Positions 3,066 to 33,229 of a stretch of DNA of 64,000 nucleotides are shown here, in pieces (the first letter of the stretch is position 1; each line of letters begins with the position of its first letter). The stretch spans positions 22,816,001-22,880,000 of the forward strand of contig NC_135805.1 in assembly GCF_964213995.1 (NCBI RefSeq), given 5' to 3'. Both the position numbers and the translations under genes were made by a program. The notes under the pieces were generated by a model. That model searched no databases. It was given only the letters and a program-made list of their open reading frames with translations, and was not told the DNA's origin. The DNA is from Mustelus asterias (lineage: Eukaryota).

Positions 3066-3141
3066 CTTGCTGTGATGATTTGTTAAGGTTTCGCTGTTTT
3101 GCTGACAAACCTGACGACACATCCTTGGCTGTCTGAGCAAG
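3066..3141 (+). ncRNA. SNORD53: Box C/D snoRNA, SNORD53-type (copy 1)
   Basis: Box C GTGATGA at 3072-3078, box D CTGA at 3133-3136, terminal stem CTTGC/GCAAG. Guides GGTTTCGCTG and CCTTGGCTGT are complementary to 28S CAGCGAAACC and ACAGCCAAGG. The D+5 rule points to the C of ACAGC, the SNORD53 target (human Cm3848). WDR43 is the known host gene. Confidence 0.92.
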
Positions 3142-6542: not shown

Positions 6543-6985
6543 TAGGAGCAGGAGTAGGGCTTCGAGCCTGCTCCACCATTTCATGCGATCATGGCTGATT
6601 TAATCTCAGCCTCAACTCTACTTTCCTGTCCATTCATCATGGCCCTCCAAACCCTTACTAAAAATCTGTCGACCTCTTCCTTAAATTTACTCAATGTCCC
6701 GACATCCGCCACTCTCTCGGGTGGTGAATGCCACAGAGTCACGATCCTTTGAGAGAAGTAATTTTTCCTCATCTCTGTTTTAAATCTCCCTCCCCATATT
6801 GTAAAACCATGACCTCCTGCTCTAGATTCCCTGCAAGAGGAAACATCCACTCCATGTCTGCTTTGTCAGTCCCTGTTATCAGCTTGTACATCTCAGTTAG
6901 AGATCTCATTCTTCTGAAGGAGTATTGGCCTAAACTGCCCAACCTCTCTTTGTAAGACAAACCTCTCATTTCTGGAATCAAATCT
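6543..6985 (-). mobile_element. CR1 LINE 3' fragment (also 12773-13215)
   Basis: Minus-strand translation gives GLSYKERL..LG.YS and GGRFKTEMRKNYFSQRIV..W. Confidence 0.85.
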
Positions 6986-9295: not shown

Positions 9296-9371
9296 CTTGC
9301 TGTGATGATTTGTTAAGGTTTCGCTGTTTTGCTGACAAACCTGACGACACATCCTTGGCTGTCTGAGCAAG
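9296..9371 (+). ncRNA. SNORD53: SNORD53-type box C/D snoRNA, copy 2
   Basis: Identical to 3066-3141. Confidence 0.92.
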
Positions 9372-10851
9372 CTGGCTAATCCCTCGATTTGCTTTGGTGA
9401 TGAGTAGCCATTCAGGGTTAATTTAAAACAAAATGATAACCTTGCAGATGAAATGATGATTGTGTTTGTGTGACTGCCTGCCTTCCAAAATTGGCCCCTT
9501 CATTACTGTTACCCCTTCACCCTAATGTGCAGAAAATAAATAATACTATTTTATGCTATGTTGGTGGTGTAATTTTAATTAGATTCAACCTCAGTCATGG
9601 GAAGTCTCCCTCAATACTCTTGACAATAAAATAAAAGCAAAATATTGAGGTAAATAGAAAATTCTGGAAAAATTCAGCAGGTCTAGTAGCATCTGTGAAG
9701 AGAGAGAAACAGCATTAATGCTTCAAGTCCAACATCACTCTTCTTCCAAACTCTTAGACCATGTGGGCACAGCTATGATAGATAGCTCAGTGACGCATAC
9801 AAGCTCTTGGGTGAAGAATGTTCCCTTGTGTGAGATAGCAGAGGGCTGCTTCCATCTATCGCATTGTGCCCCCAGTGGATCTTAAATTTGATGCAGGGCA
9901 CAGAGAGGAAGAAATCAGCATAATTCGAATGGGTTCTAGAGAAACAATTGGCTGCTTTATATTGGAATTCTGTAAAGTATATTAAGTGACACATTGGTTT
10001 TCCTGACCTTAGCTCCAGTTTGAAGAATTGCTGGTTTCATGACGGTGTTTGAGACTTTAAGCAGTTATATTGCAAGAGGTGCTTGGTCCAAGCAGGAGAA
10101 GACAAACTGCAAGCTAAACATGTCCAGGTGTAAAGTGATTAAAAATCAATGCTTAGATGCCCAGGGAGAAAGGAAGAGAGTTGAGCACTAAATCTAGCAC
10201 GTAAAATCAATCTATTTGTAAGCGTCTTTGAAATGAAACCCTGTGTGAAAAAGTTCTGTTTAATAATACTTGGAGTATTATGAACAACTGTGGGCACCAA
10301 CCACACCTAATGTAGTGCATATTGATCTTGGAGGGAGCGCAGTGTAGATTTGCCAAAATGATGCCTGGACTCTGAGGATTAAGCTGAGGAGTGATTGTAC
10401 AAACTCGGGTTGTATTCTAATGAATTTAGAAGTTTATGGGATGATTCAGTTGACATTTTCAAGATGTGGGGGGAGTAGATAATACTAAACTATTTCTGTT
10501 GACTGGAGAGTATAGGAATGTGTGGCGTTATAGTATTAAAAATTAGAGCCACACATTTCAGTAGTGAAATCAGGAAACAGTTCAGTCAAAGAGTGATGGG
10601 AGTTTGGAAGGTCCCTCCACAAATGGCTAGATCAGTTACTGAGGTTGATAGATTTAAAAAAAAATTGAGTTCTGCATCATTGAATGGTGAAAATGCTTGA
10701 GGGGGGCTAAATGACCTACATCCTCTCTCCCCAAGCCCCAGTTGAAAATTAATCAGAAGAATTTGTTAATTTCTATAGTGTTGCAGCTTTATCTACATGT
10801 GCAACGTTAAACCTAAAACACATGTTTCTTCCCCCCTCCCCTCCCAAACAG

Positions 10852-10972
10852 CAAATGGAAAGCTGAGAAAGGCAGCGTCAGTTGTCTTTGTCTCAGCCCC
10901 GATGGAAAGATGTTGCTATCAGCGGGCCGTGGCATCAAACTATGGGACCTGGAGACCAAAGAAGTGTACAGG
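10852..10972 (+). CDS. WDR43: WDR43 exon-4 equivalent, copy 2
   Basis: Identical to 4622-4742, with intact splice sites. Confidence 0.9.
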
Positions 10973-13036
10973 GTGAGTACTTAAAACTCTGCTTCTGTGC
11001 AGTTTGCATTGAGTTGTAATTTATTTGTGCCACAAGTGGTTTCTAATTTGGAAACACGTTTTGTATAGTGGGAGGATGACCAGGCTCCTGCTTTCTTTCC
11101 ACAAGTCCCTATATTTTCCTCTGCTTCAAATATTAATTCAATGTTCCCTAAAAAGATCCTTCCCTCAACCAGTACCTGGGTCAAAGCATTCAGTCTTCCA
11201 ACAGCCCTACTGAAAAGAAACATTTTTGCTCTTTTTGGCTTTGAATTGATGACCCCTGATCCTCGTCAACAAGAGAAAGCAATCTTATTCCATTGTTCTT
11301 ATCAAAACTCTTCCTAGTTCCAAGCACCTTTTAATTCTCCTTTGCTTCCTGCTCCAGTGCAGTAAGTTCCATTAATACATCTCTCCATTGCTGTAGCTTC
11401 CAACTCTGGCAGAATCCTGACTGTCTAGTGGCTTTGCAATTTCCATAATGTGCTCAAAACTGCACGCAATAGAACCATTGCTGGCTTTGAATTTATCATT
11501 GCTTCTTTACTCCTAAAATTCACATATCAATGCTCGATCACAAGCTGCCGTTGGGTTTACTACGAGAGGGTAAGCCCGTGCCACCAGTTGTCTCTGCGAG
11601 GGTACAGAGATGGGCCTTCTTGCTAGCTGCGTACAACTACTCCTTGCAGCATTGGCCAGGGAGGCAAATATCGAATGGGGGTGAACTCAGCTGCCTTCCT
11701 CTTCCGCAGACCGTCCTGTCAACACTTGTACAACAAGAAATAATGATGTTGCGCCTGCTCAAGACATTGCCGGCCTCAGGTACCCATCTGAAAACTTGAA
11801 CTGAGAGAGACCCACTACTATCAAAAGTACAAGTTTGGCATTATGATAAGTCAGAGCAACTCAGACCCTACCTATTGCATAGGACAGAGATATAGTCAGG
11901 GTGACGTGTTGTTGTGGGGGGCTCGTGTAATAGTGCCACCCTGGGGTAATGGCTTTTGCTACAGGAGATGCACACCCTGGACAAAGTAGGATGAAAACAT
12001 TGGCCCAAAGCTGTGTCAAGTGGCCAGGCATTGCCAAAGGTCAAAAGAATGGTCAGCCAATGCTCAAGTCATTGCTCGAGCCCAGGAGTTATTGCCATCA
12101 CCAGCATATATGGAAGTGGCCAGGTCGGTCATGGTCCTGATTTGCACATAGACTTCGCAGGACCATATGTTCCTCACTCCTCATCCTAAATGCTGGTATC
12201 AGCGATGGGATCATGTCACTACCACATTGTGATTTTAAAAAACTGGGTCGTTAATGTCCTTTAGGAAAGGAAATCTGCCGGCCTTAGTTAGATGATTCCA
12301 GACTCTTGGTTTCTCCACATGCTGAGGTTTCCACTAAAACATCGAGCCCTAAAATACAAAAGAAAATGTTAAATCCTTTATCTGTCCTTTTTGGTAAGAA
12401 AACCTTGAGTTTGTTACCAACAGTATAAGTCCTAACACCAGGCCACACATCTGGACTAGTGGAACTGCCAAATCATGGAGTTGTTTTAGTTGAAAGTGCA
12501 TGGAACAGATTAATTGGTGTGGTGAATCAGTGTTAAGTTGGTGAATTTAATTCAAAGATGTCTGCTGAAGGATAGTTTAAAAAAAGCATTTGAGCGCATG
12601 AACTGTTGAGCAAATTCCCTTTGACCTGGGTGTTTACATAATAGCAGTGAGCAAAGTGTTTTACAGTGGTAGAGTTTGGATATCAACCCTAACACATCCT
12701 CAGCGGAATGTGCACTTTGAAGTTGTCTTGAAATAGTTGCAGAAAATTAACCCTTGCATTATTGTACACAACTAGGAGCAGGAGTAGGGCTTCGAGCCTG
12801 CTCCACCATTTCATGCGATCATGGCTGATTTAATCTCAGCCTCAACTCTACTTTCCTGTCCATTCATCATGGCCCTCCAAACCCTTACTAAAAATCTGTC
12901 GACCTCTTCCTTAAATTTACTCAATGTCCCGACATCCGCCACTCTCTCGGGTGGTGAATTCCACAGAGTCACGATCCTTTGAGAGAAGTAATTTTTCCTC
13001 ATCTCTGTTTTAAATCTCCCTCCCCATATTGTAAAA

Positions 13037-15153
13037 CCATGACCTCCTGCTCTAGATTCCCTGCAAGAGGAAACATCCACTACATGTCTGCTTTGTCAGT
13101 CCCTGTTATCAGCTTGTACATCTCAGTTAGAGATCGCATTCTTCTGAAGGAGTATTGGCCTCAACTGCCCAATCTCTCTTTGTAAGACAAACCTCTCATT
13201 TCTGGAATCAAATCTTGTGGTGTAGGAAACGCATTGCAAATTTGCCAGGGTACATTTAATGGGACTGATCGGAAGAACATGTGAACAGTGTACCATTCAG
13301 CGATAAAGCATGTTCCGCAATTCAGTTAGAACAGAGTCACACATGCTTCGATGCTTTTCCAACATTGCATTAGTACCCGTGCACCAGTTTTTAGATTTGT
13401 GTACATGGATATCGAATTCCCTTTGCTCCCTACCCCAGTGTTCATGAATAAATTATTCATATTTATCTATCGCAGATCCAAGTGCGTAACCTTACACTTG
13501 CTCACATTAAACTGTGTCATAGCTTTTCACAGAGCCAAGTCTTTTGTGCTCCCACCATTACAGTTTCTAGCTCTTAAATTAATGTTATCTAATTTAAGTC
13601 CATAATATACATGGTGAAAAGCTGAGGTCACATTACAGATTCCTATGCAATGATATTTTACACATGTGGCAGTTCATTGCCTGGTGCTTGCAAAACTGAA
13701 GAAAAGGTATTGGGGTTGCTAGTTTCCATGAAAAATCGGCAGATATTTTCTTCCAGGCCTCTTTAATTCCTGTATTTGGGGGAACTTGGCTGATTTGTGT
13801 GTTAGACTGGCTCTTCAGAAATAACTTCCCCAATCCAGTTAATGATGAATGAATACCACTTTTCTGAAGTTTGATTATTCTACAAGTGAATCTTTGCTTG
13901 AAGTTTATAATCAATTCTTTTGTAACAGCCAAGATATGGCCACGGTTCCTTTGACCGTGACAGTTCCCATCTCCTTCTGTTGGTTACGCAGTCCTTTGTG
14001 TGGTAGTAAACTCTCAGGAGTTCAGTTGCTCGCATTGGTTCCTCCAGAAGCTTGCAGGTTTTTGTTGTGATAGAGAAGAAGTTAAACCAGAGAGTACCAT
14101 GACCTCCTGTTCTAGATTCCCTGCAAGAGGAAACATCCACTCCATGTCTGCTTTGTCAGTCCCTGTTATCAGCTTGTACATCTCAGTTAGAGATCGCATT
14201 CTTCTGAAGGAGTATTGGCCTCAACTGCCCAATCTCTCTTTGTAAGACAAACCTCTCATTTCTGGAATCAAATCTTGTGGTGTAGGAAACGCATTGCAAA
14301 TTTGCCAGGGTACATTTAATGGGACTGATCGGAAGAACATGTGAACAGTGTACCATTCAGCTGATAAAGCATGTTCCGCAATTCAGTTAGAACAGAGTCA
14401 CACATGCTTCGATGCTTTTCCAACATTGCATTAGTACCTGTGCACCAGTTTTTAGATTTGTGTACATGGATATCGAATTCCCTTTGCTCCCTTCCCCAGT
14501 GTTCATGAATAAATTATTCATATTTATCTATCGCAGATCCAAGTGCGTAACCTTACACTTGCTCACATTAAACTGTGTCATAGCTTTTCACAGAGCCAGT
14601 CTTTTGTGCTCCCACCATTACAGTTTATAGCTCTTAAATTAATGTTATCTAATTTAAGTCCATAATATACATGGTGAAAAGCTGAGGTCACATTACAGAT
14701 TCCTATGCAATGATATTTTACACATGTGGCAGTTCATTGCCTGGTGCTTGCAAAACTGAAGAAAAGATACTGGGATTGCTAGTTTCCATGAAAAATCGGC
14801 AGATATTTTCTTCCAGGCCTCTTTAATTCCTGTATTCAGATTTGGGGAACTTGGCTGATTTGTGTGTTAGACTGGCTCTTCAGAAATAACTTCCCCAATC
14901 CAGTTAATGATGAATGAATACCACTTTTCTGAAGTTTGATTATTCTACAAGTGAATCTTTGCTTGAAGTTTATAATCAATTCTTTTGTAACAGCCAAGAT
15001 ATGGCCACGGTTCCTTTGACCGTGACAGTTCCCATCTCCTTCTGTTGGTTACGCAGTCCTTTGTGTGGTGGTAAATTCTCAGGAGTTCAGTTGCTCGCAT
15101 TGGTTCCCCCAGAAGTTTGCAGGTTTTTGTTGTGATAGTTAAACCAGAGAGTA
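13037..15153 (+). repeat. ~1.06-kb internal duplication within the long units (13037-14096 and 14097-15153; equivalent pair at <1-575 and 576-1632)
   Basis: The same junction AACCAGAGAGTA|CCATGACCTCC occurs at 575 and 14096. It joins sequence that normally continues TCCCCGAG (1633) to sequence normally preceded by GTAAAA (6801). Confidence 0.9.
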
Positions 15154-16586
15154 TCCCCGAGATGTGAACCATTTCTGAAAATAAATCATTTGACTGGATC
15201 TGCAATGTATATAACATGCACAGCACAACTGGCAAGTGTTTGTTGTTCTATGACTTGTCTTCAGAACCTGAGACACTTGTGAATCACTCCTGAGAGTTGC
15301 GGTGGCTGTGGGGGGCAGGTAGCGACACGATTGGTTGTGCTTTAGGAAAATTGGGACAGAGAAATGTTTCCTTAACTGAATGCATTCTCTCAGTCCTAAA
15401 TAGCAAAGTTCATTGCTCGCTTAAGGTGCCTCTTTCTCAGATGTTTAAAATACACCTGATTTATGGCCATCTGAGCACACTGCTGGTAAATGGAATTAAA
15501 ATGAATTGTGTACCATCGTTGAAACTAACTGAGGTTTTTATCGTGGAGGCCCAGTGCTTGCAGCATCTTCAACTTGACAGTCTTAAACAGTTTCTGAAAA
15601 AACTGGAAAGGGTGGAAATGGTAAATATCTGTGTGTGACTTCTACAAAGTTAAAGCTGCTTGCTTTGTGAGTTGATGTCTGATTCTAGAGATTAAATTGG
15701 AATTAAAGGCTGTGTCTTTTTGTGGCTTGAATGTTTGAAATTGTATCTGAGACACAAGACAGCTTCATAAATTAGTAAGTACTGTATCACACTATGTATT
15801 TTATGGAGTATATGTTTTTACGGCCTCGACTCCCTTTTTGTGCCATTTCTCTATTCCTTGATCTCAGATGTTAGAATTTGAATTCAATTTTTTAAAACCT
15901 GGAATTCAAAATCTACTGATGACCATGAAACCGTTGTCGATTGTCAGAAAAACCCGATCTGATTTGCTAATGCCCTTTCGGAAGGAAATCTGCCATCCTT
16001 ACCCGGTGTGGCCTACATGTGACTCCAGAGCCACAGCAACGTGGTTGACTCTCAACTGCCCTCTGAAATGGCCTAGCAAGCCACTCAGTTCAAGGGCAAC
16101 GAGGGATGGGCAATAAATGCTGGCCAGCCAGTGACACCCATGTCCCACGAATGAATTTTTAATAAAAATGAAATATTTGGTTCTTGGGTTTCTTCTGGTT
16201 ACCATTTTGGTACTTTGAGTTTAAGATTACTCACTGGGCATTACCTGTGCCATGTGACATTTTCTTAAACCTCCTTTTGACAATGGTATCACATGTCCAA
16301 GGAGATCATTGTTGATTTACATTAAACTGTGACGATTTTTCAGAATGCACACCCCACCAGCGCACTTTGTGTTATCAGTATTGATTAGATTTGTTTTGAA
16401 TGATAGCAGAATCTAGCCTGGCATTAAAATGATGGAACAAGCAAATGCGTGAAGTTTCTGTGCAATGGGGTGTCAGGGGTGGTGGGAGGGAAGGTTAGTG
16501 GAAGTTCTCAATCTTGTCACATAAACGAATAGCTGTATCTCTTGAGCACAGTTTACTCTTTACACCAAAGCAGGGTTTCCAGAAGT

Positions 16587-16662
16587 CTTGCTGTGATGAT
16601 TTGTTAAGGTTTCGCTGTTTTGCTGACAAACCTGACGACACATCCTTGGCTGTCTGAGCAAG
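16587..16662 (+). ncRNA. SNORD53: SNORD53-type box C/D snoRNA, copy 3
   Basis: Identical to 3066-3141. Confidence 0.92.
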
Positions 16663-18142
16663 CTGGCTAATCCCTCGATTTGCTTTGGTGATGAGTAGCC
16701 ATTCAGGGTTAATTTAAAACAAAATGATAACCTTGCAGATGAAATGATGATTGTGTTTGTGTGACTGCCTGCCTTCCAAAATTGGCCCCTTCATTACTGT
16801 TACCCCTTCACCCTAATGTGCAGAAAATAAATAATACTATTTTATGCTATGTTGGTGGTGTAATTTTAATTAGATTCAACCTCAGTCATGGGAAGTCTCC
16901 CTCAATACTCTTGACAATAAAATAAAAGCAAAATATTGAGGTAAATAGAAAATTCTGGAAAAATTCAGCAGGTCTAGTAGCATCTGTGAAGAGAGAGAAA
17001 CAGCATTAATGCTTCAAGTCCAACATCACTCTTCTTCCAAACTCTTAGACCATGTGGGCACAGCTATGATAGATAGCTCAGTGACGCATACAAGCTCTTG
17101 GGTGAAGAATGTTCCCTTGTGTGAGATAGCAGAGGGCTGCTTCCATCTATCGCATTGTGCCCCCAGTGGATCTTAAATTTGATGCAGGGCACAGAGAGGA
17201 AGAAATCAGCATAATTCGAATGGGTTCTAGAGAAACAATTGGCTGCTTTATATTGGAATTCTGTAAAGTATATTAAGTGACACATTGGTTTTCCTGACCT
17301 TAGCTCCAGTTTGAAGAATTGCTGGTTTCATGACGGTGTTTGAGACTTTAAGCAGTTATATTGCAAGAGGTGCTTGGTCCAAGCAGGAGAAGACAAACTG
17401 CAAGCTAAACATGTCCAGGTGTAAAGTGATTAAAAATCAATGCTTAGATGCCCAGGGAGAAAGGAAGAGAGTTGAGCACTAAATCTAGCACGTAAAATCA
17501 ATCTATTTGTAAGCGTCTTTGAAATGAAACCCTGTGTGAAAAAGTTCTGTTTAATAATACTTGGAGTATTATGAACAACTGTGGGCACCAACCACACCTA
17601 ATGTAGTGCATATTGATCTTGGAGGGAGCGCAGTGTAGATTTGCCAAAATGATGCCTGGACTCTGAGGATTAAGCTGAGGAGTGATTGTACAAACTCGGG
17701 TTGTATTCTAATGAATTTAGAAGTTTATGGGATGATTCAGTTGACATTTTCAAGATGTGGGGGGAGTAGATAATACTAAACTATTTCTGTTGACTGGAGA
17801 GTATAGGAATGTGTGGCGTTATAGTATTAAAAATTAGAGCCACACATTTCAGTAGTGAAATCAGGAAACAGTTCAGTCAAAGAGTGATGGGAGTTTGGAA
17901 GGTCCCTCCACAAATGGCTAGATCAGTTACTGAGGTTGATAGATTTAAAAAAAAATTGAGTTCTGCATCATTGAATGGTGAAAATGCTTGAGGGGGGCTA
18001 AATGACCTACATCCTCTCTCCCCAAGCCCCAGTTGAAAATTAATCAGAAGAATTTGTTAATTTCTATAGTGTTGCAGCTTTATCTACATGTGCAACATTA
18101 AACCTAAAACACATGTTTCTTCCCCCCTCCCCTCCCAAACAG

Positions 18143-18263
18143 CAAATGGAAAGCTGAGAAAGGCAGCGTCAGTTGTCTTTGTCTCAGCCCCGATGGAAAG
18201 ATGTTGCTATCAGCGGGCCGTGGCATCAAACTATGGGACCTGGAGACCAAAGAAGTGTACAGG
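18143..18263 (+). CDS. WDR43: WDR43 exon-4 equivalent, copy 3
   Basis: Identical to 4622-4742, with intact splice sites. Confidence 0.9.
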
Positions 18264-19353
18264 GTGAGTACTTAAAACTCTGCTTCTGTGCAGTTTGCAT
18301 TGAGTTGTAATTTATTTGTGCCACAAGTGGTTTCTAATTTGGAAACACGTTTTGTATAGTGGGAGGATGACCAGGCTCCTGCTTTCTTTCCACAAGTCCC
18401 TATATTTTCCTCTGCTTCAAATATTAATTCAATGTTCCCTAAAAAGATCCTTCCCTCAACCAGTACCTGGGTCAAAGCATTCAGTCTTCCAACAGCCCTA
18501 CTGAAAAGAAACATTTTTGCTCTTTTTGGCTTTGAATTGATGACCCCTGATCCTCGTCAACAAGAGAAAGCAATCTTATTCCATTGTTCTTATCAAAACT
18601 CTTCCTAGTTCCAAGCACCTTTTAATTCTCCTTTGCTTCCTGCTCCAGTGCAGTAAGTTCCATTAATACATCTCTCCATTGCTGTAGCTTCCAACTCTGG
18701 CAGAATCCTGACTGTCTAGTGGCTTTGCAATTTCCATAATGTGCTCAAAACTGCACGCAATAGAACCATTGCTGGCTTTGAATTTATCATTGCTTCTTTA
18801 CTCCTAAAATTCACATATCAATGCTCGATCACAAGCTGCCGTTGGGTTTACTACGAGAGGGTAAGCCCGTGCCACCAGTTGTCTCTGCGAGGGTACAGAG
18901 ATGGGCCTTCTTGCTAGCTGCGTACAACTACTCCTTGCAGCATTGGCCAGGGAGGCAAATATCGAATGGGGGTGAACTCAGCTGCCTTCCTCTTCCGCAG
19001 ACCGTCCTGTCAACACTTGTACAACAAGAAATAATGATGTTGCGCCTGCTCAAGACATTGCCGGCCTCAGGTACCCATCTGAAAACTTGAACTGAGAGAG
19101 ACCCACTACTATCAAAAGTACAAGTTTGGCATTATGATAAGTCAGAGCAACTCAGACCCTACCTATTGCATAGGACAGAGATATAGTCAGGGTGACATGT
19201 TGTTGTGGGGGGCTCGTGTAATAGTGCCACCCTGGGGTAATGGCTTTTGCTACAGGAGATGCACACCCTGGACAAAGTAGGATGAAAACATTGGCCCAAA
19301 GCTGTGTCAAGTGGCCAGGCATTGCCAAAGGTCAAAAGAATGGTCAGCCCCCC

Positions 19354-19553
19354 NNNNNNNNNNNNNNNNNNNNNNNNNNNNNNNNNNNNNNNNNNNNNNN
19401 NNNNNNNNNNNNNNNNNNNNNNNNNNNNNNNNNNNNNNNNNNNNNNNNNNNNNNNNNNNNNNNNNNNNNNNNNNNNNNNNNNNNNNNNNNNNNNNNNNNN
19501 NNNNNNNNNNNNNNNNNNNNNNNNNNNNNNNNNNNNNNNNNNNNNNNNNNNNN
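19354..19553. other. Assembly gap (200 N, likely a placeholder of unknown true size)
   Basis: Run of exactly 200 N. Confidence 0.99.
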
Positions 19554-19880: not shown

Positions 19881-20362
19881 ACTTACCCAAGCCTGAATGT
19901 TATCTAGGCCTTGCTGCATATGGACACAGCCTGCTTCATTATTTGGGTGGCTACAAATGGAACTGAATGAATGCTGGAATTATTTGGCTGCCAACACTGC
20001 CTGCAAGGTCCCACACTGACATTGAATGGCTGTGGGTGAAGTGTTAGAGGAGCTTCATGCGGGAGGAATAGCATTTAATTCTTTTAATATCAGATTATCG
20101 TGCTAAAATAATAGCTGAATGCTTTTTGCTGCTATATCCGGGCTGTCCTGAACATTTTCTATCTCCTCAATAGAGGGAGCTGTTGCTACTGCTCCAGCCT
20201 TTCCTGTATTTTAGTTGTAGTGAAGGTCTAGAGGTTTTGAAACCAATGTATCTTGAGGCAATGGAAACTGATTTGCACCGACTGTTATAGTTATAAATTG
20301 TAATAAGATTTATATACATTTGGCACACATTTAATGACTTTGTTTTGTCTGCATGTATGTAG

Positions 20363-20426
20363 TGCTGCGTTAATGGTCAAGTGGCTAAAGGCAGTCTTCA
20401 CCCTACATGCCTCCTATCTGTCTACA
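20363..20426 (+). CDS. WDR43: WDR43 exon (Utp12/Dip2 domain, fifth from last): (S)AALMVKWLKAVFTLHASYLST
   Basis: TAG acceptor, ACA|GTAAGT donor, 64 nt. Matches recalled human [22 protein letters not shown]. Confidence 0.93.
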
Positions 20427-20578
20427 GTAAGTAACATTGGTTTACTCAGCCTCAGCAGTATAACGAAAGACATGTTGAATGTTAGCTTTGATATCTCTGG
20501 GATCTTCAAACGCTAAATTCAGGAAACCTTTTTTGGTTTATAGCCTGTTGCTGGTCAGGTATGAAGGAACAAATAAGG

Positions 20579-20712
20579 TTGCATCTGTTGACAGACCTGA
20601 AGCACATTCCAGTGGCTTTCTGGTTCCTTATTATTAAGATGCAAGATCAATTTCTTCGCGCTTTCTGTCTGCTCTTCTAGTGGCAGTTTGGATTGAATAG
20701 AGGAAAACATAC
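20579..20712 (+). ncRNA. SNORA31: Box H/ACA snoRNA, SNORA31-like, copy A
   Basis: Hairpin 1 stem TTGCATCT/AGATGCA, H box AGATCA at 20644-20649, hairpin 2 pocket CGCGCTT/TTGAA, ACA at 20707-20709 three nt from the end. Shares GCATC..TGA.AGACC, GATGCAA, GCGCTTTCTGTCTG and GATTGAAT with recalled human SNORA31. Confidence 0.85.
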
Positions 20713-21126
20713 ATGAAAATGTACATCTTTATGATGTTATTGGGTTGTATCTTTTAAGTGTGTAACCATATCCACAGAAAGTATGGGCTCCATTTGAAAC
20801 CTCTTGGCTATCATAGGTATGTACGTGTTGGGTATCGATGTTCAGTGGGGCTTTAACTTTTCTGATTCTAAAGGAGTGATGCTTGGAGCAATGATGAACC
20901 ATCTCTTTAAAAAAAAAATTGGGTTTATACAGTTTAACTATTTAGAATCTGCTTTTGAGAATCTTGGGTGGGTGGCACTGTAGAAATTGTGGCATTACTT
21001 CCAAGTTTAGTTTGCTAATCTACAGGATTTACCATTCATGTATTGAAGTACTGTATTTATGATTAGAATTTCACAAAGTTCTGTAACTTTAGCTTGCACT
21101 GAAGTGGTTGATTTTACTCTCTGCAG

Positions 21127-21240
21127 CTGCCTAATCTTGTACCACAGCTCGGGGCCTTGTACCAGCTGATGGAGAGCAGGGTGAAAACGCTCCAAAAGCT
21201 TTCGCGGCTGCATGGCAAGCTCTTTCTTCTAGTTGCACAG
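21127..21240 (+). CDS. WDR43: WDR43 exon: [38 protein letters not shown]
   Basis: CTGCAG acceptor, CAG|GTAAGG donor, 114 nt, in frame with both neighbouring exons. Confidence 0.95.
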
Positions 21241-21669
21241 GTAAGGAGTGGATGTCTGGTGCTGTGGGCAGTTACTGAGTGCAAGTTATGCAGGGAATTG
21301 GAGGAGAATTCCAAAGATGGTATGCATATTTTACAACTGCCTGTGACTGTGAAAATCCACCTAACTTACATTTCCCTCACTGTTTTACTTGTATCATCAA
21401 ACACCACTTCACTTCTGAGGTGCAGGCTTATGATTCAGATATTTCATTTAGTGCCCCACAGTTGTATTTGGGGATCTCTCTGGCAAATGGCACTGGTAGG
21501 ATCTATATTGCTGTTCTATTGGTGCAACACACTGCCCCATCGGCAAGCTAAATGTATTCAGAATCATTCGTATGAATGTTAGAAACTAGAATTTCTTCTA
21601 AGTTGCTAAAGTTTGCCTTTGTTATGAGCATTCTTGTGAAACTGAGTAGCTGTGTTTGATATCCCTCAG

Positions 21670-21739
21670 GTTGCAGCATCCGATAAAGCTCAAGATGTAA
21701 ACCCTGTGAACCAGACAGCAAAGCTGGTTTATGAGGAAG
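21670..21739 (+). CDS. WDR43: WDR43 exon: VAASDKAQDVNPVNQTAKLVYEE(E)
   Basis: CCTCAG acceptor, AAG|GTAAGA donor, 70 nt. Contains the conserved AKLVYEEE motif. Confidence 0.93.
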
Positions 21740-22689
21740 GTAAGAGCTAACCTGTTGTTACTCTGTATCGATGCAATTGTTCTCCATGGTAATGTGTATC
21801 TTGTAGATCAATATGAAGTGGCAACAAGATATTAACAAGATGATGAAAAATTATTGGGGGTGAGACAGGAATGTGGGGTTGAGGTTGCAATTAGATCAAC
21901 CATGATCTTATTGATTGACAGAGCAGGCTGGAGGGGCTCCTAATTCGTATATTGCTGAGGTGCTTTGGAGGTCTTAAAAATGAACACTGAGTCAAAAGGG
22001 AACAGTGGCCAAATGGTCGAGTTTTTCTTGGGGGTCTTGAAAGGAATGAAGGGATGCAAAGAGACGTAGGGTGGGACCCAAGTTTGAGGCCTCGATGACT
22101 GAAGGTATCACTTGCAGTGGTGGTTTGAAATGAATTTAGGATGAGATTAGAAGGAGGTCCAGAAATAGTGAGAGACATGGTCATGAAGTGATTTGAAAGC
22201 AAGGTTGCCAATTTTAAATGAGTGCTGTGACATTGGTAGTCAATGTAACAAGGACAGGTGTGAAGGAAAGCAGGAGTTGGTGCAGAATAAGATATTGGCA
22301 GTTAGGTTCTAAACAAGTGATGATCATGAGATATCTGATGGGAAGCTGGTCAGGAGAACATTAGAACAGAAATATCTGGTGGTGACACGTTCATGGTTGT
22401 GATTTCAGCAACGTTTAGCTGAGGCAGAAAAAGGAAATGGTGATCTTCTGGAAGTATGCATAGGTGATCTTCATGGTGGATGGAATATGAGATTGGAAAC
22501 TTGGTTTGGGATTGCGTAGAAAACTGAGGTTGCTAAGAATTTGGTTCAGACTAAGGCAGTGACTGGGGAGGCTGATGTAATTAGCGGCACAAGTAAAGTT
22601 TGTAATGAAGCCCTCCATTGGCCTACATGAATAGGGAGTCGAGAGTAAATCTTTGATTCACTAGAAATAATAGTGGGGAGTGGGAAGAG

Positions 22690-22925
22690 AAGTTATTGCA
22701 AGTTTTTTACTCAGACGGTGGTGGTTGCCTGGAACTCACTGCCAGGAGAGGTAGTGGAAGTAGATAGTGACTTTTAAGGGGTGTCTTGACAAATACATGA
22801 ATAGGATGGGAGTAGAGGGATATGGTCCTCGGAAGGGTAGGGGATTTTAGTTCAGTCAGGTAGCATGGTCGGTGCAGGCTTGGACAGTTGAAGGGCCTGT
22901 TGCTGTGCTGTAATTTTCTTTGTTC
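22690..22925 (+). mobile_element. CR1 LINE 3' end fragment
   Basis: FFTQ.VV..WNSLP..VVE motif followed by a GAAGGGCCTGTT..TGTGCTGTA tail. Confidence 0.75.
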
Positions 22926-23061
22926 AATGACAAGGTTTTGTCACATGGTAAACTCATTTGAGGTACTTGGAATGATTAATAGCATTCTGTGAACAGGCTA
23001 GGGTTAGTGGTAAGTTGAAACTAGCTTATTGGGATGAGTGGAAAAGACTGAAAAAGGATAT

Positions 23062-23192
23062 GTGCATCTCTTGACAGACCTGAAGTTCAACACTAACTTT
23101 TTGGGTTTATTCACTGAGATGCGAGATCAAATTTCTTTGCGCTTTCTGCCTGCCCCTTTAGTGGCAGCTCAGATTGAATAGAGAATACACGT
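23062..23192 (+). ncRNA. SNORA31: Box H/ACA snoRNA, SNORA31-like, copy B
   Basis: TGCATCTC/GAGATGCG stem, H box AGATCA at 23124-23129, pocket TGCGCTT/TTGAA, ACA at 23187-23189. Confidence 0.85.
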
Positions 23193-23735
23193 AACAGACA
23201 ACACTGTATTTATACTGTTAATCTGCTCCAACTACTTTCATTTCCAGTGTGTTCTCAATCAGTTGACTGAATCACCATTCTATTTTTTATATTCTACTTA
23301 AGAAATAAATGTAAATTAAGAAATGGAAGGGAGGGAGGAACTCAGGAAAATTCCAATCACCAGGGAAGTGGTACTGAGCAAATTGTTGGGTCTGCAGGCT
23401 GATAAATCCCCTGCTCTAGGTGGACTTCACCCCAAGGCCTTGAAAGGAAAATGGCTGATGAGATAGTTGATGCATTGATTTTAATTTTCCAAAATTCCCT
23501 AGATTTGGGGAAGGTTCCATTTGATTGGAGAATAGTAAACAAAACTCCTTTATTCAAAAAGGGAGAGAGACAAAAAGCAGGAAACTGCAAGCTAGTTAGC
23601 CTAACATCTGTCATTGGGAAAATGTTAGACGCCATTATTAAAGATGTTATAGCAGGGCATTTGAAAAAAAATCAAGGCAATAAGGCAGAGTCAACATGGT
23701 TTTGTGAAAGGGAAATCATGTTTATTGGAGTTCTT

Positions 23736-26700
23736 AGAAACATAGAAAAACTAGAGCACAAAACAGGCCCTTCGGCCCCACAAGTTGTGCTGAACATATC
23801 CCTACCTTTTAGGCCTACCTATAACCCTCCATCCTATTAAGTCCCATGTACTCATCGAGGAGTCTCTTAAAAGACCCTATTGAGTTTGCCTCCACCACCA
23901 CTGACAGCAGCCGATTCCACTCGCCCACTACCCTCTGTGTGAAAAACTTCCCCCCAATATTTCCCCTGTACCTACCCCCCAGCACCTTAAACCTGTGTCC
24001 TCTTGTAGCAGCCATTTCCACCCTGGGAAAAAGTCTCTGAGAGTCCACCCGATCTATGCCTCTCAACATCTTGTATACCTCTATTAGGTCTCCTCTCATC
24101 CTACGTCTCTCCAAGGAGAAAAGACCGAGCTCCCTCAGCCTATCCTCATTAGGCATGCCACTCAATCCATGCAACATCCTTGTAAATCTCCTCTGCACCA
24201 TTTCAATGTTTTCCACATCCTTCCTGTAATGAGGCGACCAGAACTGAGCACAGTACTCCAAGTGGGGTCTGATGAGGGTCTTGTATAGCTGCATCATTAT
24301 CCCTGGACTCCTAAACTCAATCCCTCGATTGATAAAGGCCAGCACACCATACGCCTTCTTAACCACCTCCTTCACCTGCGGGGCCGATTTTAGAGTCCTA
24401 TGGACCCGGACCCCAAGGTCCTTCTGATGCTCTACCGTACTAAGAGTCTTTCCCTTTATATTGTGCTCCTTCATCCCATTTGACTTGCCAAAATGGACCA
24501 CTATGCATTTATCTGGGTTGAAGTCCATCTGCCACTTCTCCGCCCAGTCTTGCATCCTATCTATGTCCCTCTAACTTCTCTGACATCCCTCCAGACTATC
24601 CACAACCCCACCAACCTTTGTGTCGTCGGCAAACTTACCAACCCATTCCTCCACTTCCTCATTCAGGTCATTTATGAAAATGACAAACAGCAAGGGTCCC
24701 AGAACAGATCCCTGGGGCACACCACTGGTGATCGACCTCCATTTAGAAAAAGACCCATCTATACCCACTCTCTGCCTCCTTTGGGCAAGCCAGTTCTGGA
24801 TCCACAGGGCAGCAGCCCCTTGGATTCCATGCCCCCTCACTTTTTCTAGAAGCCTTGCATGGGGGACCTTATTGAACGCCTTGTTAAAATCCATATAAAC
24901 CACATCTACCGCTTTCCCTTCGTCAATGTGTTTAGTCACATTTTCGAAGAACTCCACCAGGCTCGTAAGGCATGATCTGCCTTTGACAAAACCATGCTGA
25001 GTATTCTTGAGCATGCTAAGCCTCTCTAAATGCTCATAAATCTTGTCCCTCAGGATCTTCTCCATCAGCTTACCAACCACTGAGGTTAGACTCACAGGTC
25101 GGTAATTTCTTGGGCTTTCCCTATTCCCCTTCTTGAAAAAAGGAACCACATCCGCAATCCTCCGGCACCTCTCCCGTCTCCATCGACAACGCAAAGATCA
25201 TCGCCAGAGGCTCTGCAATCTCTTCCCTCGCCTCCCACAGTAACCTGGGGTACATCCCATCCGGACCTGGCGACTTATCTATCTTGATGCCATTCAAAGA
25301 TTCCAGCACAACCTCTTTGTTAAAGTCCACATACTCAGTCTTTTCAGTCCACCGCAAGCCCGCAGTACATCCACCCAGGTCCTTCTCCTCTGTGAAAACC
25401 GAGGCAAAATACTCATTAAGTACCTCTGCCATTTACTGGTTCCGTACAGCTTTTCCCACCTTCACCTTTTATAGGCCCTATTCCTTCACGTCTCATCCTT
25501 TTACTCTTCACATATTTATAGAACGCCTTAGGGTTCTCCTTAATCCTACCTGCCAAGGCCTTCTCAGGACACCTGGCTCTCCTAATTTCCTTCTTTAGTC
25601 CCTTCCTACAAGCCGTATACTCATCTAGATCCCTATCTCTGCCAAGCTCTCTGAACATTTTGTACGCTTTCCTTCTCTTCTCAACTAGGTCCCGCACAGC
25701 TTTTGTGCACCACGGTTCCTTTAACCGACCAACTCCTCCCTGTCTGCTCGGAACGTTGTCCTGTAGAACTCTAGACAGACATTCCTTGAAAAACTGCCAC
25801 CTCTCTTCAGTACATTTCCCCGAGAATACCTCCTTCCAATTTACTCCTCTAATTTGCTGCCTTATGTCTTCATATTTCCCCTTACTCCATACAAACGCTT
25901 TCCTAGCTTGCCTGATCCTCTCTTTTTCCAATGCAAGCATAAAGGAGATAGAGTCATGATCGCTATCCCCAAGATGCTCCTCCACTGAGAGATCTGACAC
26001 CTGTCCAGGTTCATTGGTCAGTATCAGAGCAAGTACAGCGAGGTGATGAATGAATATTTTTCTTCAGTGTTCACCAAGGAGAGGGGCCATGTTTTTGAGG
26101 AAGAGAAGGTGTTACAGGCTAATAGGCTGGAGGAAATAGATGTTCGGAGGGAGGATGTCCTGGCAGTTTTGAATAAACTGAAGGTCGACAAGTCCCCTGG
26201 GCCTGATGAAATATATCCTAGGATTCTTTGGGAGACAAGGGATGAGATTGCAGAGCCTTTGGCTTTGATCTTTGGGTCCTCATTGTCCACCGGGATGGTG
26301 CCAGAGGACTGGAGAATGGCGAATGTTGTTCCTCTGTTTAAGAAAGGGAATAGAAATGACCCTGGTAATTATAGACCGGTTAGTCTTACTTCGGTGGTTG
26401 GTAAATTGATGGAAAAGGTCCTTCGGGATGGGATTTACGACCATTTAGAAAGATGCGGATTAATCCGGGATAGTCAGCACGGATTCGTGAAGGGCAAGTC
26501 GTGCCTCACAAATTTGATAGAATTTTTTGAGGAGGTAACTAAGTGTGTTGATGAAGGTAGGGCAGTTGATGTCATATACATGGATTTTAGTAAGGTGTGT
26601 GATAAGGTCCCCCATGGTCGGCTTATGATGAAAGTGAGGAGGTGTGGGATAGAGGGAAAGTTGGCCGATTGGATAGGTAACTGGCTGTCTGATCGAAGAC

Positions 26701-27962
26701 AGAGGGTGGTGGTGGATGGAAAATTTTCGGATTGGAGGCAGGTTGCTAGCGGAGTACCACAGGGATCAGTGCTTGGTCCTCTGCTCTTTGTGATTTTTAT
26801 TAATGACTTAGAGGAGGGGGCTGAAGGGTGGATCAGTAAATTTGCTGATGACACCAAGATTGGTGGAGTCGTGGATGAGGTGGAGGGCTGTTGTAGGCTG
26901 CAAAGAGACATAGATAGGGTGCAAAGCTGGGCTGAAAAATGGCAAATGGAGTTTAACCCTGATAAATGTGAGGTGATTCATTTTGGTAGGACTAATTTAA
27001 ATGTGGATTACAGGGTCAAAGGTAGGGTTCTGAAGACTGTGGAGGAACAGAGCGATCTTGGGGTCCATATCCACAGATCTCTAAAGGTTGCCACTCAAGT
27101 GGATAGAGCTGTGAAAAAGGCCTATAGTGTGTGAGCTTTTATTAACAGGGGGTTGGAGTTTAAGAGCCGTGGGGTTATGCTGCAACTGTACAGGACCTTG
27201 GTGAGACCACATTTGGAATATTGTGTACAGTTCTGGTCACCTCACTATAAGAAGGATGTGGAAGCGCTGGAAAGAGTGCAGAGGAGATTTACCAGGATGC
27301 TGCCTGGTTTGGAGGGTAGGACTTATGAGGACAGGTTAAGGGAGCTAGGGCTGTTCTCTCTGGAGCGGAGGAGGCTGAGGGGAGACTTAATAGAGGTTTA
27401 TAAAATGATGAAGGGGATAGATAGAGTGAACGTTCAAAGACTATTTCCTCGGGTGGATGGAGCTATTACAAGGGGGCATAACTATAGGGTTCGTGGTGGG
27501 AGATATAGGAAAAATATCAGAGGTAGGTTCTTTACGCAGAGTGGTTGGGGTGTGGAATGGACTGCCTGCAGTGATAGTGGAGTCAGACACTTTAGGAACA
27601 TTTAAGCGGTTATTGGATAGGCACATGGAGCACACCAGGATGATAGGGAGTGGGGTAGCTTGATCTTGGTTTCAGATAAAGCTCGGCACAACATCGTGGG
27701 CCGAAGGGCCTGTTCTGTGCTGTGCTGTACTGTTCTATGTTCTCTCCTCTCTCTCGTAGGCTTGTCCACATGCTGTGTCAGGAAACCCTCCTGAACACAC
27801 CTAACAAATTCCTCCCCATCCAATCCCCTTACCTTAGGGATATTCCAATCTATGTTTGGGAAATTAAAGTCTCCCATCACAACAACTCTGCTATTATTGC
27901 AACACTCCAGGATCTGTTTTCTTATCTGCTCCTCCACCTCCCTGTTACTATTCTTGGTACTA
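23736..27962 (-). mobile_element. CR1 LINE (5'-truncated, part of endonuclease plus RT, frameshifted), interrupted at 26040-27741
   Basis: ORFs 23815-24555, 24571-25194, 25121-25432, 25416-26000 and part of 27602-28054 (MGDFN, FADD). Tail CTATGTTTCT. Possible TSD TTCTT. Confidence 0.92.
26040..27741 (+). mobile_element. CR1 LINE, 5'-truncated RT region
   Basis: ORFs 26043-27134 and 27153-27605 (GVPQGSVLGP, FADD). Tail GTTCTATGTTCT. Confidence 0.95.
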
Positions 27963-28399
27963 TTCTTTGGAGGTGTCACATGTGCAGTGGATAAAGGGGA
28001 AACCAGTGGATGTGCTGTACTTAGATTTCCAGAAGGCATTTGATAAAGTGCCACATAAAAGGTTATTGTGTAAAATAAAAACTCTTGATAACATATTGGC
28101 AGGGATTGAAGATTGGATCACTAACAGGAAACATAGTTGGCACAAATGGGTCTTTTTCTAGTTGGCGGGATGTGTTGAGTGGTGTGCCACAGCGCCTCAT
28201 TCTCACAATTTATATAAATGACTTAGCTGAAGGGACCAAAGATATGGTTGCTAAATTTACTGACAAGACAAAGTTAGGAAAGTAAATTGAGAGAGGACGT
28301 AAGGAGGCTACAAAAGGATACTGATGGATTAAGTGAGTGGGCAAATGTGAAATTGTCCATTTTGGCAGGAAGAATAAATAAGTAGCTTATTAACTAAAT

Positions 28400-30031
28400 A
28401 AGAACATAAGAAATAGGAGCAGGAGTAGGCCATCAAGCCCCTCGAGCCTGCCCCGCCATTCAATAAGATCATGGCTGATCTGACGTGGATCAGTACCACT
28501 TACCCGCCTGATCCCCATAACCCTTAATTCCCTTACCGATCAGGAATCCATCCATCCGCGCTTTAAACATATTCAGCGAGGTAGCCTCCACCACCTCAGT
28601 GGGCAGAGAATTCCAGAGATTCACCACCCTCTGGGAGAAGAAGTTCCTCCTCAACTCTGTCTTAAACCGACCCCCCTTTATTTTGAGGCTGTGTCCTCTA
28701 GTTTTATCTTCCTTACTAAGTGGAAAGAATCTCTCCGCCTCCACCCTATCCAGCCACCGCATTATCTTATAAGTCTCCATAAGATCCCCCCTCATCCTTC
28801 TAAACTCCAACGAGTACAAACCCAATCTCCTCAGCCTCTCCTCATAATCCAAACCCCTCATCTCCAGTATCAACCTGGTGAACCTTCTCTGCACTCCCTC
28901 CAATGCCAATATATCCTTCCTCATATGAGGGGACCAATACTGCACACAGTATTCCAGCTGCGGCCTCACCAATGCCCTGTACAGGTGCATCAACACATCC
29001 CTGCTTTTATATTCTATCCCCTTCGCAATATAGGCCAACATCCCATTTGCCTTCTTGATCACCTGTTGTACCTGCAGACTGGGCTTTTGCGTCTCATGCA
29101 CAAGGATCCCCAGGTCCCTTTGCACGGTAGCATGTTTTAATTTGTTTCCATTGAGATAATAATCCCATTTGTTATTATTTCCTCCAAAGTGTATAACCTC
29201 GCATTTCTCAACGTTATACTCCATTTGCCATATCCTCGCCCACTCACTCAGCCTGTCCAAATCTCTCTGCAGATCTTCTCCGTCCTCCACACGATTCACT
29301 TTTCCACTTATCTTTGTGTCGTCTGCAAACTTTGTTACCCTACACTCCGTCCCCTCCTCCAGATCATCTATATAAATGGTAAACAGTTGCGGCCCGAGTA
29401 CCGATCCCTGCGGCACGCCACTAGTTACCTTCGTCCAACCGGAAAAACACCCATTTATTCCGACTCTTTGCTTCCTGTCGGATAGCCAGTCCCCAATCCA
29501 CTTTAACACACTACCCCCAACTCCGTGTGCCCTAATCTTCTTCAGCAGCCTTTTATGGGGCACCTTATCAAACGCCTTTTGGAAATCCAAAAACACCGCA
29601 TCCACCGGTTCTCCTCCATCAACCGCCCTAGTCACATCTTCATAAAAATCCAACATGTTCGTCAAGCACGACTTTCCCCTCATGAATCCATGCTGCGTCT
29701 GATTGATCGAACCATTTCTATCCAGATGCCCTGCTATCTCCTCTTTAATAATGGATTCCAGCATTTTCCCTACTACAGACGTTAAGCTGACCGGCCTATA
29801 GTTACCCGGCTTTTGTCTCCTTCCTTTTTTAAACAGCGGCGTAACATTAGTCGTTTTCCAATCAACCGGCACTACCCCAGAATGCAACGAGTTTTGATAA
29901 ATAATCACTAACGCATCCACTATTACCTCTGACATTTCTTTCAATACCCTGGGATGCATTCCATCCGGACCCGGGGACTTGTCCACCTTCAGTCCCATTA
30001 GTCTACCCAGCACTGCCTCTCTGGTAACATT
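28400..30031 (-). mobile_element. Young CR1 LINE, 5'-truncated, with an uninterrupted 507-aa RT frame
   Basis: ORF 28490-30013. Tail CTTATGTTCTT. Apparent 3-bp TSD AAT. Confidence 0.95.
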
Positions 30032-30847
30032 AATGGTGAGAGATTGCAGAGCTGAGGTGCAGGGGGATCTGGGTTTCTTTGTGCATGAATCACAAAAGGC
30101 TAGTATAAAGATACAGCAAGTAATTAGGAAAGCTGAAAGAATGCTATCCTTTATTGTGAGGAGAATTGACTACAAAAGTAGGGAGGCTATGCTTCAGTTG
30201 TACAGGGCACTGGTGAGACCGCATCTGGAGTATTATGTACATTATTGGTCTCCTTATTTAAGGAAAGATGCAAATGCCTTAGAACAGTTCAGAGAAGGCT
30301 CACTAGAATTAATACCAGGACTGGATAAGTTGTCTTAAGAGGAAAGGTTGGAGAGTGTAGTTTTGTATCCACTAGTCTAGTTGAGTATGATGTGACTTGA
30401 TTGAAACTTTTAATGTTCTGAGGGGTGTTGATCGGGTGGATGTGGAGAGGATGCTTCCTCTTGTCAGAGAATGTAGAACTCGTCACTTATTCAAAATAAG
30501 GTGTTACCCGTTTAAGGCAGTGGCGAAGAGAAATGTTTTGTCTCAGGGTCGAGAATCTCTGGAACACTCTTCCTCAAAAAGCATGGAAGAGTCTTTGAAT
30601 ATTTTTAAGGCAGAGCTAGATAGATTCTTGATTAACAAGGGGGTGAAACGTTACCAGGAGTAGGCAGAATTGTGGGGTTGAGGTTGCAATCAGAACAGGC
30701 ATGACGTTTTGCATGGTGGAGCAGGTTCAAGCGCTGACTGGCCTACTGCTGCTTCTAATTCCTATGCAAGAAGATACTGTACAGTGCAAGGTATGTTGCA
30801 GTTTGCTGGTATTAACTCAAAAGTTATTTTATTTCTGACCCTTGTAG

Positions 30848-30903
30848 AATCATCTGAAGAGGAAAACTCAGAAGACGACATGATGGCTGACCAGGAATCT
30901 GAT
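30848..30903 (+). CDS. WDR43: WDR43 penultimate exon: (E)SSEEENSEDDMMADQESD
   Basis: CTGAC branch-like motif + TGTAG acceptor, GAT|GTAAGT donor, 56 nt, phase 1 to 0, compatible with both neighbours. Confidence 0.9.
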
Positions 30904-31948
30904 GTAAGTGTAGCAAACAGGCCCAGGATGTCTCAGCTCCCCCAGAAGTGTCGTCCTAATGTTGGAGATCAATTTGACTTTAGAAGACAAATTGTTTCTT
31001 TTAGTCTGTTCAGATTCCTCTTCATTTTTTTGTCACTTTGTGTCTTTTGTCGCAAAGAAAAATTTGAGAGACTATTGTTTTATTAATTCATCAGTCTAAT
31101 TTCACTGAAATTCCTGTGCTATTTCCCTGTGCCTGTGTAATAAGAGGGAGGGAAAGGTTGTCTCATTCAGATGATGTGAAATGGCATTGGACCGTATAAC
31201 AGCGTTATTTCATGGTACTTGTATGCCAAGCAAACCTGTTGTATCAAGTCAATTGATTTCAGTAATTACAATTAGGTAGTCTTTTGACTACAATTTCCAA
31301 ACTGGTTCAAAATAGCACAATAACTCACTACAAGCTCTGAAGTTGAATTGGAGTGAATATTTCCATTATTCCTGCCTTTGAAGTTACTTTGTGTTCTTGC
31401 TGAGATGAAGCAATTCAAGTATTGAAGGTGAAATAGTTTCCCATCTTTTAAATCCATTGTCTTGGGTACTCCCAAGTGAGATATAATCTGCCAACTCCCA
31501 GCTCCTTCCAACTAACGGGGTAAGATTTCCCCTCTTCCCTGTAGCAAAGTCATAAACTTGGATAATGAACTTGTTCATGATTTTGTTATTAATGATGAAA
31601 TAATACATCCATTGTACTCCTCATTTCCACCCTCGGAACACTGTGTGCAGTTGTACATTCTTGCAGTTTCTAGGTTTATTCTTTAGCCTCAGGGAGAATG
31701 CCTTATTTGCTTTATTCTGTGTTTCAGAGCTCCCAATTAGCAGTAATCAGTAAATCAGACTTGGAGATTATTGTTAGGTGAATATAGGCAAATGGGAAAG
31801 AGACCTTAAAGTCTAAGGGAGAGACAATCTGACCAAATTATTCTTGGTGGAGGGAAAGCTTTGAATTTTATTTTTAAAGCATGCTGATTCATTAAGATGT
31901 CGTCTTTGGGTTTTTTGGAGGTGGGGAAAATGAACAAAAAATGTAAGT

Positions 31949-32083
31949 TTGCATCTATTGACAGACCTGAAGCCGATCTTTGTGGCTTTTTAGGTTCTTT
32001 TCCAGTTAGATGCAAGATTAAATTCCTCGCGCTTTCTGTTTGATGAATTAGTAGCAATTCAGATTGAATAGAGGAATACATAA
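31949..32083 (+). ncRNA. SNORA31: Box H/ACA snoRNA, SNORA31-like, copy C
   Basis: TTGCATCTA/TAGATGCA stem, H box AGATTA at 32015-32020, TTCCTC/GAGGAA stem, pocket CGCGCTT/TTGAA, ACA at 32078-32080. Confidence 0.87.
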
Positions 32084-33106: not shown

Positions 33107-33229
33107 GAGAACTGGGAGGAGGACGAGGAAGAGGAGAGAGCAGGCGACCCAAAAATGCACATTGACAAAGAAATCAGCGAAGACTCCGGAGAGGACATGC
33201 ACACAGGAAATGAAAGTGAAGAGGAATAA
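33107..33229 (+). CDS. WDR43: WDR43 last coding exon: ENWEEDEEEERAGDPKMHIDKEISEDSGEDMHTGNESEEE*
   Basis: CTAG acceptor. Acidic tail ending NESEEE-TAA, as in recalled human WDR43 (ENESEEE). Confidence 0.9.
   Translation, partial: ENWEEDEEEERAGDPKMHIDKEISEDSGEDMHTGNESEEE

Follow-up and report, generated by a model that had tools for sequence, protein, structure and literature searches.

The window analysed here, a 64,000-nucleotide (nt) stretch of the shark Mustelus asterias (RefSeq assembly GCF_964213995.1, contig NC_135805.1, positions 22,816,001 to 22,880,000 of the forward strand; positions below count from its first letter), contains the 3′ part of the gene WDR43 and, in three of its introns, H/ACA small nucleolar RNAs (snoRNAs) of the SNORA31 family. 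When cmscan was run on the whole window, with the gathering threshold of 40 bits for the Rfam family RF00322 (SNORA31), 6 matches above the cut-off were obtained, namely three SNORA31 and three identical SNORD53/92 copies. An initial annotation, made from the sequence alone, had proposed two-hairpin RNAs at the three SNORA31 positions, and its coordinates proved exact, with all three copies on the + strand. The features are listed below, with the WDR43 exons numbered by the 18-exon layout of vertebrates.

20363..20426, + strand: WDR43 exon 14 (tblastn, splice ends, joint 20426-21127 in run X3)
20579..20712, + strand: H/ACA snoRNA, likely SNORA31B type, in WDR43 intron 14 (Rfam, 51.6 bits, full model); TTGACAG at 20588-20594, H box at 20644-20649, ACA at 20707-20709; 28S guide strands at 20655-20663 and 20693-20698, 9+6 base pairs (bp) with 28S U2589
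21127..21240, + strand: WDR43 exon 15, with Utp12 domain (tblastn, splice ends, run X3 joints; Pfam Utp12 E 6e-4, below the whole-protein cut-off, the piece being 38 amino acids, aa)
21670..21739, + strand: WDR43 exon 16 (tblastn, splice ends, run X3 joint)
23062..23192, + strand: H/ACA snoRNA, likely SNORA31B type, in WDR43 intron 16 (63.9 bits); H box at 23124-23129, ACA at 23187-23189
30848..30903, + strand: WDR43 exon 17 (tblastn, splice ends)
31949..32083, + strand: H/ACA snoRNA, likely SNORA31B type, in WDR43 intron 17 (70.3 bits); H box at 32015-32020, ACA at 32078-32080
33107..33229, + strand: WDR43 exon 18, coding part up to the stop codon (tblastn, splice ends)

The placement of one sense copy per intron of WDR43, as proposed in the initial annotation, was borne out for introns 14, 16 and 17. 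Exons 14-18 have AG/GT ends and join into a single open frame, and contigs of run X3 contain GT..AG joints across introns 14 and 15. The exon-4 peptide matches shark proteins named WDR43 at 95-100%, and tblastn of the Mustelus asterias WDR43 protein (P0015) against contig C1110 gave exon stretches that match at 77-100% each, overhangs included. No SNORA31 match was found in intron 15 by cmscan of the window.

The three WDR43 copies carry the H boxes AGATCA, AGATCA and AGATTA, which fit ANANNA, and all three end in ACA-N3, with the ACA three bases from the end. Each folds as two hairpins, in the hairpin-hinge-hairpin-tail arrangement, and their pairwise identity is 75-78%. Single-sequence folding z-scores were -1.5, -3.2 and -3.8 for the intron-14, intron-16 and intron-17 copies, respectively, so the intron-14 copy is not unusual by folding energy alone. 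Across six family members, 91.6% of the cells of the named structure were paired, versus 39-47% in slid controls, and 5 of 30 structure pairs had changed on both sides; the structure was derived from the same six sequences, and the test therefore favours it. The stem covariation initially described, GCATCTC/GAGATGC versus GCATCTA/TAGATGC, is kept in two of the three copies (C-G in intron 16, A-U in intron 17) and gives way to a G.A mismatch in the intron-14 copy. These results demonstrated that the WDR43 copies are SNORA31-family H/ACA snoRNAs, that is, a known family in a new arrangement. The loci may already carry a SNORA31 mark in genome-browser annotations; annotation of shark SNORA31 loci by Rfam scans in RefSeq and Ensembl is likely.

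Searching the genome with RF00322, with 42 of 198,131 candidates scored, gave 6 matches, which are the three window copies, two copies identical to that of intron 14 (on contigs C1110 and C1535) and one in TPT1 (G000:C17:8279334-8279464, 58.9 bits). An independent, exact family-wide pattern returned the identical 6 places in the assembly, with 0 for its control, and DNA searches of the assembly revealed no further SNORA31 copy. An exact pattern for the full 28S guide was found at 5 places, all of them WDR43-linked (control 0). The TPT1 copy sits 135 nt from the 3′ splice site, between the exon with the Pfam TCTP domain and an exon that starts with the stop codon, and thus lies in the last intron of TPT1, as in chicken; a search with TPT1 exon 5 gave one match in the assembly. 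No second SNORA31 copy was present within 40 kb around the shark TPT1, where SNORA31B at the TPT1 3′ end would be expected. Since TPT1 still hosts a SNORA31, the initial suggestion that the family resides in WDR43 rather than TPT1 does not hold.

To what the copies would be directed was evaluated by scoring both guide pockets against the genome's own rRNA unit on contig C347 (5,752 nt of rRNA). There, the 28S site AUUCAA-UG-AAGCGCGGG places the target at U2589, and the 18S site GUGCA-UU-UAUCAG places it at U210; these would correspond to human U3713 and U218, an assignment that rests on the same pocket sequences in chicken and on the listed human targets. As a pocket criterion, bipartite complementarity at ~15 +/- 1 nt from the box was adopted from PMC8522698. 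The 3′ pockets of the intron-14 and intron-17 copies have 28S U2589 as their top target, with 9+6 bp and 14 nt to the ACA, and 8 of the 9 bp on the left strand of the intron-17 copy are Watson-Crick. The intron-16 copy forms 9 (6 Watson-Crick)+6 bp with 28S U2589 in the homologous register. The pairing of the 3′ pocket with 28S is exactly as the initial annotation had claimed. Its accompanying claim of guide-strand conservation applies to the 3′ pocket; the right strand of the 5′ pocket differs in all three copies, and none pairs around 18S U210 (1+0, 1+1 and 1+0 bp). The SNORA31A-type pairing of CTGATA/TGCAY at this site is made by the TPT1 copy. No canonical rRNA target common to the WDR43 5′ pockets was found, the best having 7-8 Watson-Crick pairs at different sites in a scan limited to rRNA. 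Candidates for the 5′ pocket at 28S U226 (two copies, 17-18 nt spacing) and 28S U2568 (one copy) were judged to be at chance level.

The TPT1 copy has the opposite pockets. Its top 5′-pocket target is 18S U210, with 6+5 bp and 14 nt to the H box. Its pairing around 28S U2589 is reduced to 3+6 bp, since TTAA stands in place of GCGC and binds the right strand of the same pocket. Consistent with this, the 28S left-strand duplex was calculated at -0.3 kcal/mol for the TPT1 copy versus -10.1 to -14.2 for the WDR43 copies, and the right strand of its 28S pocket has an unpaired probability of 0.22 versus 0.55-0.82. As the full 28S guide occurs only in WDR43-linked copies and the 18S pocket only in the TPT1 copy, the pockets are reciprocal between the WDR43 copies (28S) and the TPT1 copy (18S).

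The WDR43 copies were then compared with the two known subtypes. According to PMC2653536, chicken GGgACA7 is SNORA31A, located in TPT1 intron 5 with both the 28S and 18S targets; chicken GGgACA38/GGN32 (PMC2653536, PMC3349704) is SNORA31B, which sits at the 3′ end of TPT1, has 28S as its sole target and carries the strand TTGACAGACC. Human SNORA31B is placed at 13q14.13, sense to TPT1 (PMC2653536, PMC3349704 and PMC6028756), and SNORA31B is scored as present in human, opossum and platypus. By eye, all three WDR43 copies resemble the chicken B form in the TTGACAG 5′ strand, the longer right strand, the missing 18S guide and the 28S guide. They likely belong to the SNORA31B subtype, as judged by these few diagnostic pocket characters and not by a tree, and human SNORA31, a dual 28S/18S guide to which the initial annotation had referred, appears not to be their closest counterpart. 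Known SNORA31B is ~134 nt long with the TTGACAGACC 5′ strand, no 18S-218 guide and a predicted 28S-3713 3′ pocket, all common to the WDR43 copies; however, known B copies are single and lie at the TPT1 3′ end, whereas in the shark three diverged copies lie in WDR43 and no B copy lies at TPT1. With SNORA31/ACA31 (RF00322) of TPT1 intron 5, the WDR43 copies share family, fold and 3′ pocket; the copy in the shark TPT1 occupies the same last intron and has the 18S guide, but its 28S strand is decayed, whereas human, chicken and Xenopus SNORA31 are listed with both targets.

Metagenome searches added one informative locus. The first pattern gave 0 matches and the second 13 loci, 12 of which were dropped as chance matches by nhmmer; the remaining one (L069) is a vertebrate contig on which an A-like SNORA31 (83 bits) and a B-like one (46.1 bits) lie side by side. 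The two copies, at L069:602-734 and 1002-1137 on the minus strand, lie in successive introns of an apparently non-coding host, and the B-like copy ends in AUA, not ACA. The host had no similarity to TPT1 or WDR43 (best E 0.21), and L069 apparently represents a second, independent host change of the family. In three 5′-hairpin columns, the WDR43 copies go with the L069 B-like copy and the TPT1 copy with the L069 A-like copy.

The three WDR43 copies share no flank similarity (6 of 6 comparisons), which, with their 75-78% identity, supports the duplication from intron to intron proposed initially and would make it old. Over 20300-23300, 4 of 24 runs were compared. In three related species (organisms D, E and F), the intron-14 and intron-16 copies are found on contigs with ~90-94% identity, and two of these matches share one contig with exon 14. 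The intron-14 and intron-16 copies are therefore older than these species. Among the differences listed, a shared one, 20667 G>A, replaces a G.U pair in a stem by A-U. The run X3 contigs do not cover the intron-16 copy, and assembled contigs of this kind cannot reveal a mature snoRNA.

Collectively, these data suggest, with a probability of roughly 60%, that the 28S and 18S modifications are functionally divided between the host genes WDR43 and TPT1. The WDR43 copies are predicted to guide pseudouridylation of 28S U2589 with their 3′ hairpin; for the TPT1 copy, 18S U210 is the predicted target, and most of its activity on 28S is likely gone. We propose that an ancestral SNORA31 A/B pair lay side by side in TPT1, that in cartilaginous fish SNORA31B left TPT1 for WDR43, where it spread between introns long ago, and that the 3′ pocket in TPT1 then decayed, the 28S modification being provided by several B copies. 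The WDR43 snoRNAs would be cut from spliced introns. Intronic H/ACA RNAs are generally released by debranching and exonuclease trimming, and catalysis is by dyskerin together with NOP10, NHP2 and GAR1.

Several observations weigh against this reading. The spacing from upper stem to ACA in the intron-16 copy is 13 nt, one shorter than in the others and at the short edge. This genome is the only one in which the decay of the TPT1 28S pocket was observed, the break in the assembled locus hides exon 13 and its introns, and the RF00322 genome search scored 42 of 198,131 candidates. As to the subtype, three other columns group the rows differently, the A/B split appears in 0 of 200 bootstrap trees on the whole length (with chicken and human B outside the tree), and the approximately unbiased (AU) test rejects none of three topologies; trees of the whole RNAs and of their halves do not separate A from B. 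The direction from TPT1 to WDR43 is inferred by parsimony from chicken, Xenopus and zebrafish. Finally, the TPT1 copy keeps 3+6 contiguous Watson-Crick pairs at the right, 14-nt spacing, and an alternative register gives 5+6 bp; according to Deryusheva et al. (PMC6984369), weak pockets are functional elsewhere and activity is not readable from sequence. These last points favour the explanation that there is no real division, the TPT1 copy still guiding both sites through a weak 28S pocket and the WDR43 copies providing extra dosage. This is rather unlikely: the changed left strand closes the TPT1 pocket by pairing with its right strand, and GCGCTT is kept in the chicken and human A copies and in the L069 A-like copy, so that the TPT1 change is the loss of a conserved element.

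It is improbable that the WDR43 copies derive from the A-type copy of the shark TPT1 and reached a B-like 5′ strand independently. In favour of such an origin, they are no more distant from the shark TPT1 copy (67-72% identity) than from the L069 B-like copy (62-71%), and no topology is rejected; yet the change from CTGATA to TTGACA (two substitutions) and the longer right strand are common to chicken B, L069 and the three shark copies, and convergence would need selection on the motif. Even less probable is that WDR43 was the older SNORA31B host and that bony vertebrates moved B beside SNORA31A in TPT1. The comparison has no outgroup, and the joint presence of A and B in a non-TPT1, non-coding host in L069 suggests that the family moves readily; however, a local TPT1 duplication fits the side-by-side paralogues of chicken, B in human, opossum and platypus, and the two unnamed snoRNAs of zebrafish tpt1, which are listed at 131 and 134 nt, an H/ACA size, and chicken WDR43 is listed with C/D snoRNAs only, in introns 3, 4, 5 and 9. 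For Xenopus, one snoRA31 is listed. A transposon or a set of dead retrocopies, which the repeat-filled WDR43 introns might suggest and of which many dispersed copies would have been the sign, is refuted by the copy count: the assembly has no more than 6 copies, each in sense orientation in an intron of WDR43 or TPT1. The WDR43 copies, moreover, have no poly(A) after the ACA, and keep boxes, stems and guide at the overall identity given above.

TTGACAG is kept in all B-type copies seen (shark, chicken and L069), and the opposite strand varies. Its complement UGUCAA occurs twice in the 5,752 nt of rRNA, once at 16-21 nt upstream of U2589; a window of this kind takes in ~0.9% of 6-mers. The L069 B-like copy pairs 8 bp at this site, which is its best; as the test was made post hoc and other sites match the shark copies over the same or a greater length, the site is a lead only. 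It is thus a quite improbable, speculative proposal that the TTGACA strand of SNORA31B clamps the ribonucleoprotein on 28S 16-21 nt upstream of the target, with both halves on one site, and that sharks have at the same time fully split the 18S and 28S functions onto two hosts; if true, this would be a natural experiment on which function matters in human SNORA31 disease.

Host-gene turnover and independent loss of one pocket are common among vertebrate snoRNAs, as stated in PMC6984369, PMC13736004 and PMC2653536. The shark case resembles these surveys in that snoRNAs change introns and genes, are more numerous outside mammals, can lose one pocket and stay in ribosome-related hosts; it differs in that the loss is reciprocal across two hosts, and the main text of the three, in the portion searched, contains no sharks, WDR43 or SNORA31. 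No description of SNORA31 in WDR43 was found in the literature text searched, where both words occurred together only in PMC9941101 (on FUS), and 'wdr43' is absent from the searched text of PMC11880993. The locus offers a clean, testable case of a two-target guide RNA whose functions are apparently divided among paralogues hosted by different genes. The lineage concerned, the cartilaginous fish, is absent from the consulted parts of the snoRNA surveys used for comparison. The general process is well known, and the gain is a worked example, not a new principle. If orthology holds, the A/B split of SNORA31 would predate the parting of sharks and bony vertebrates. The shark case also points to SNORA31B as a likely 28S-3713 guide, which bears on the human SNORA31 variants that reviews link to herpes encephalitis. 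In work by Lafaille from 2019, deletion of SNORA31 is reported to have abolished the modification of 18S and spared that of 28S, as would be expected with a B-type backup.

The part of the window left of an assembly gap belongs to a broken tandem copy of WDR43; the following features were recorded there and at the end point of the duplication.

3067..3140, + strand: SNORD53/92 C/D snoRNA in intron 3 of the broken WDR43 unit, copy 1 of 3 identical (Rfam)
9297..9370, + strand: SNORD53/92, second identical copy, broken WDR43 unit (Rfam)
16588..16661, + strand: SNORD53/92, third identical copy, broken WDR43 unit (Rfam)
19354..19553, no strand: assembly gap, at which the scaffold lacks WDR43 exons 5-13
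21577..21580, no strand: end point of a tandem duplication of WDR43 exons 1-15, with 4-base microhomology with G000:C5:22745582 and an identical junction on C1110 and C1535

Both C1110 and C1535 start with the tail of a preceding unit that reaches window position 21580 and then jumps to C5:22745582. As they share the same junction, this assembly contains at least two duplications of WDR43 exons 1-15, which include SNORD53/92 and the intron-14 snoRNA; the latter was multiplied with them. The duplicated segment (window 1-21580; C5:22745582 onward; C1110; C1535) comprises ~57 kb of upstream sequence and WDR43 exons 1-15, with at least 2 broken units and 1 intact. C1110 holds the intact unit with exons 1-12, and C1535 the second broken unit. 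In the broken unit left of the gap, exon 1 is frameshifted and exon 3 is broken, and window 1-19353 contains three copies of intron 3 to exon 4 that are 99.5-99.8% identical; this three-fold repeat directly before the gap may be an assembly artefact. Broken units keep their snoRNAs and could act as non-coding hosts. One contig of run X3 departs from the window at 21580, which fits a transcribed junction, and contigs of organisms D, E and F read through 21580 without a jump. At window 21599-21622, adjoining the end point, 22 letters of the window are matched by a stretch of 112 in organisms D and E.

SNORD53/92 of the intact WDR43 lies in intron 3 on C1110 (G000:C1110:76183-76256), and its internal C′ box is TGATGA versus TGACGA in the broken units. 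No further snoRNA was found in WDR43 introns 1-12 on C1110, whereas chicken WDR43 is listed with four C/D snoRNAs. That WDR43 is a mixed C/D and H/ACA host, as initially suggested, is supported, for the intact gene through the inferred join of C1110 to the right part of the window.

In the remainder of the window, intron 16 is swollen to 9.1 kb by LINE-like and SINE-like repeats. Many such repeats lie at 23350-30770 and 36800-63000, with long frames of reverse-transcriptase size, e.g. 56204-58921 (905 aa, minus strand), and a tandem repeat at 63067-63626 has open frames on the + strand.

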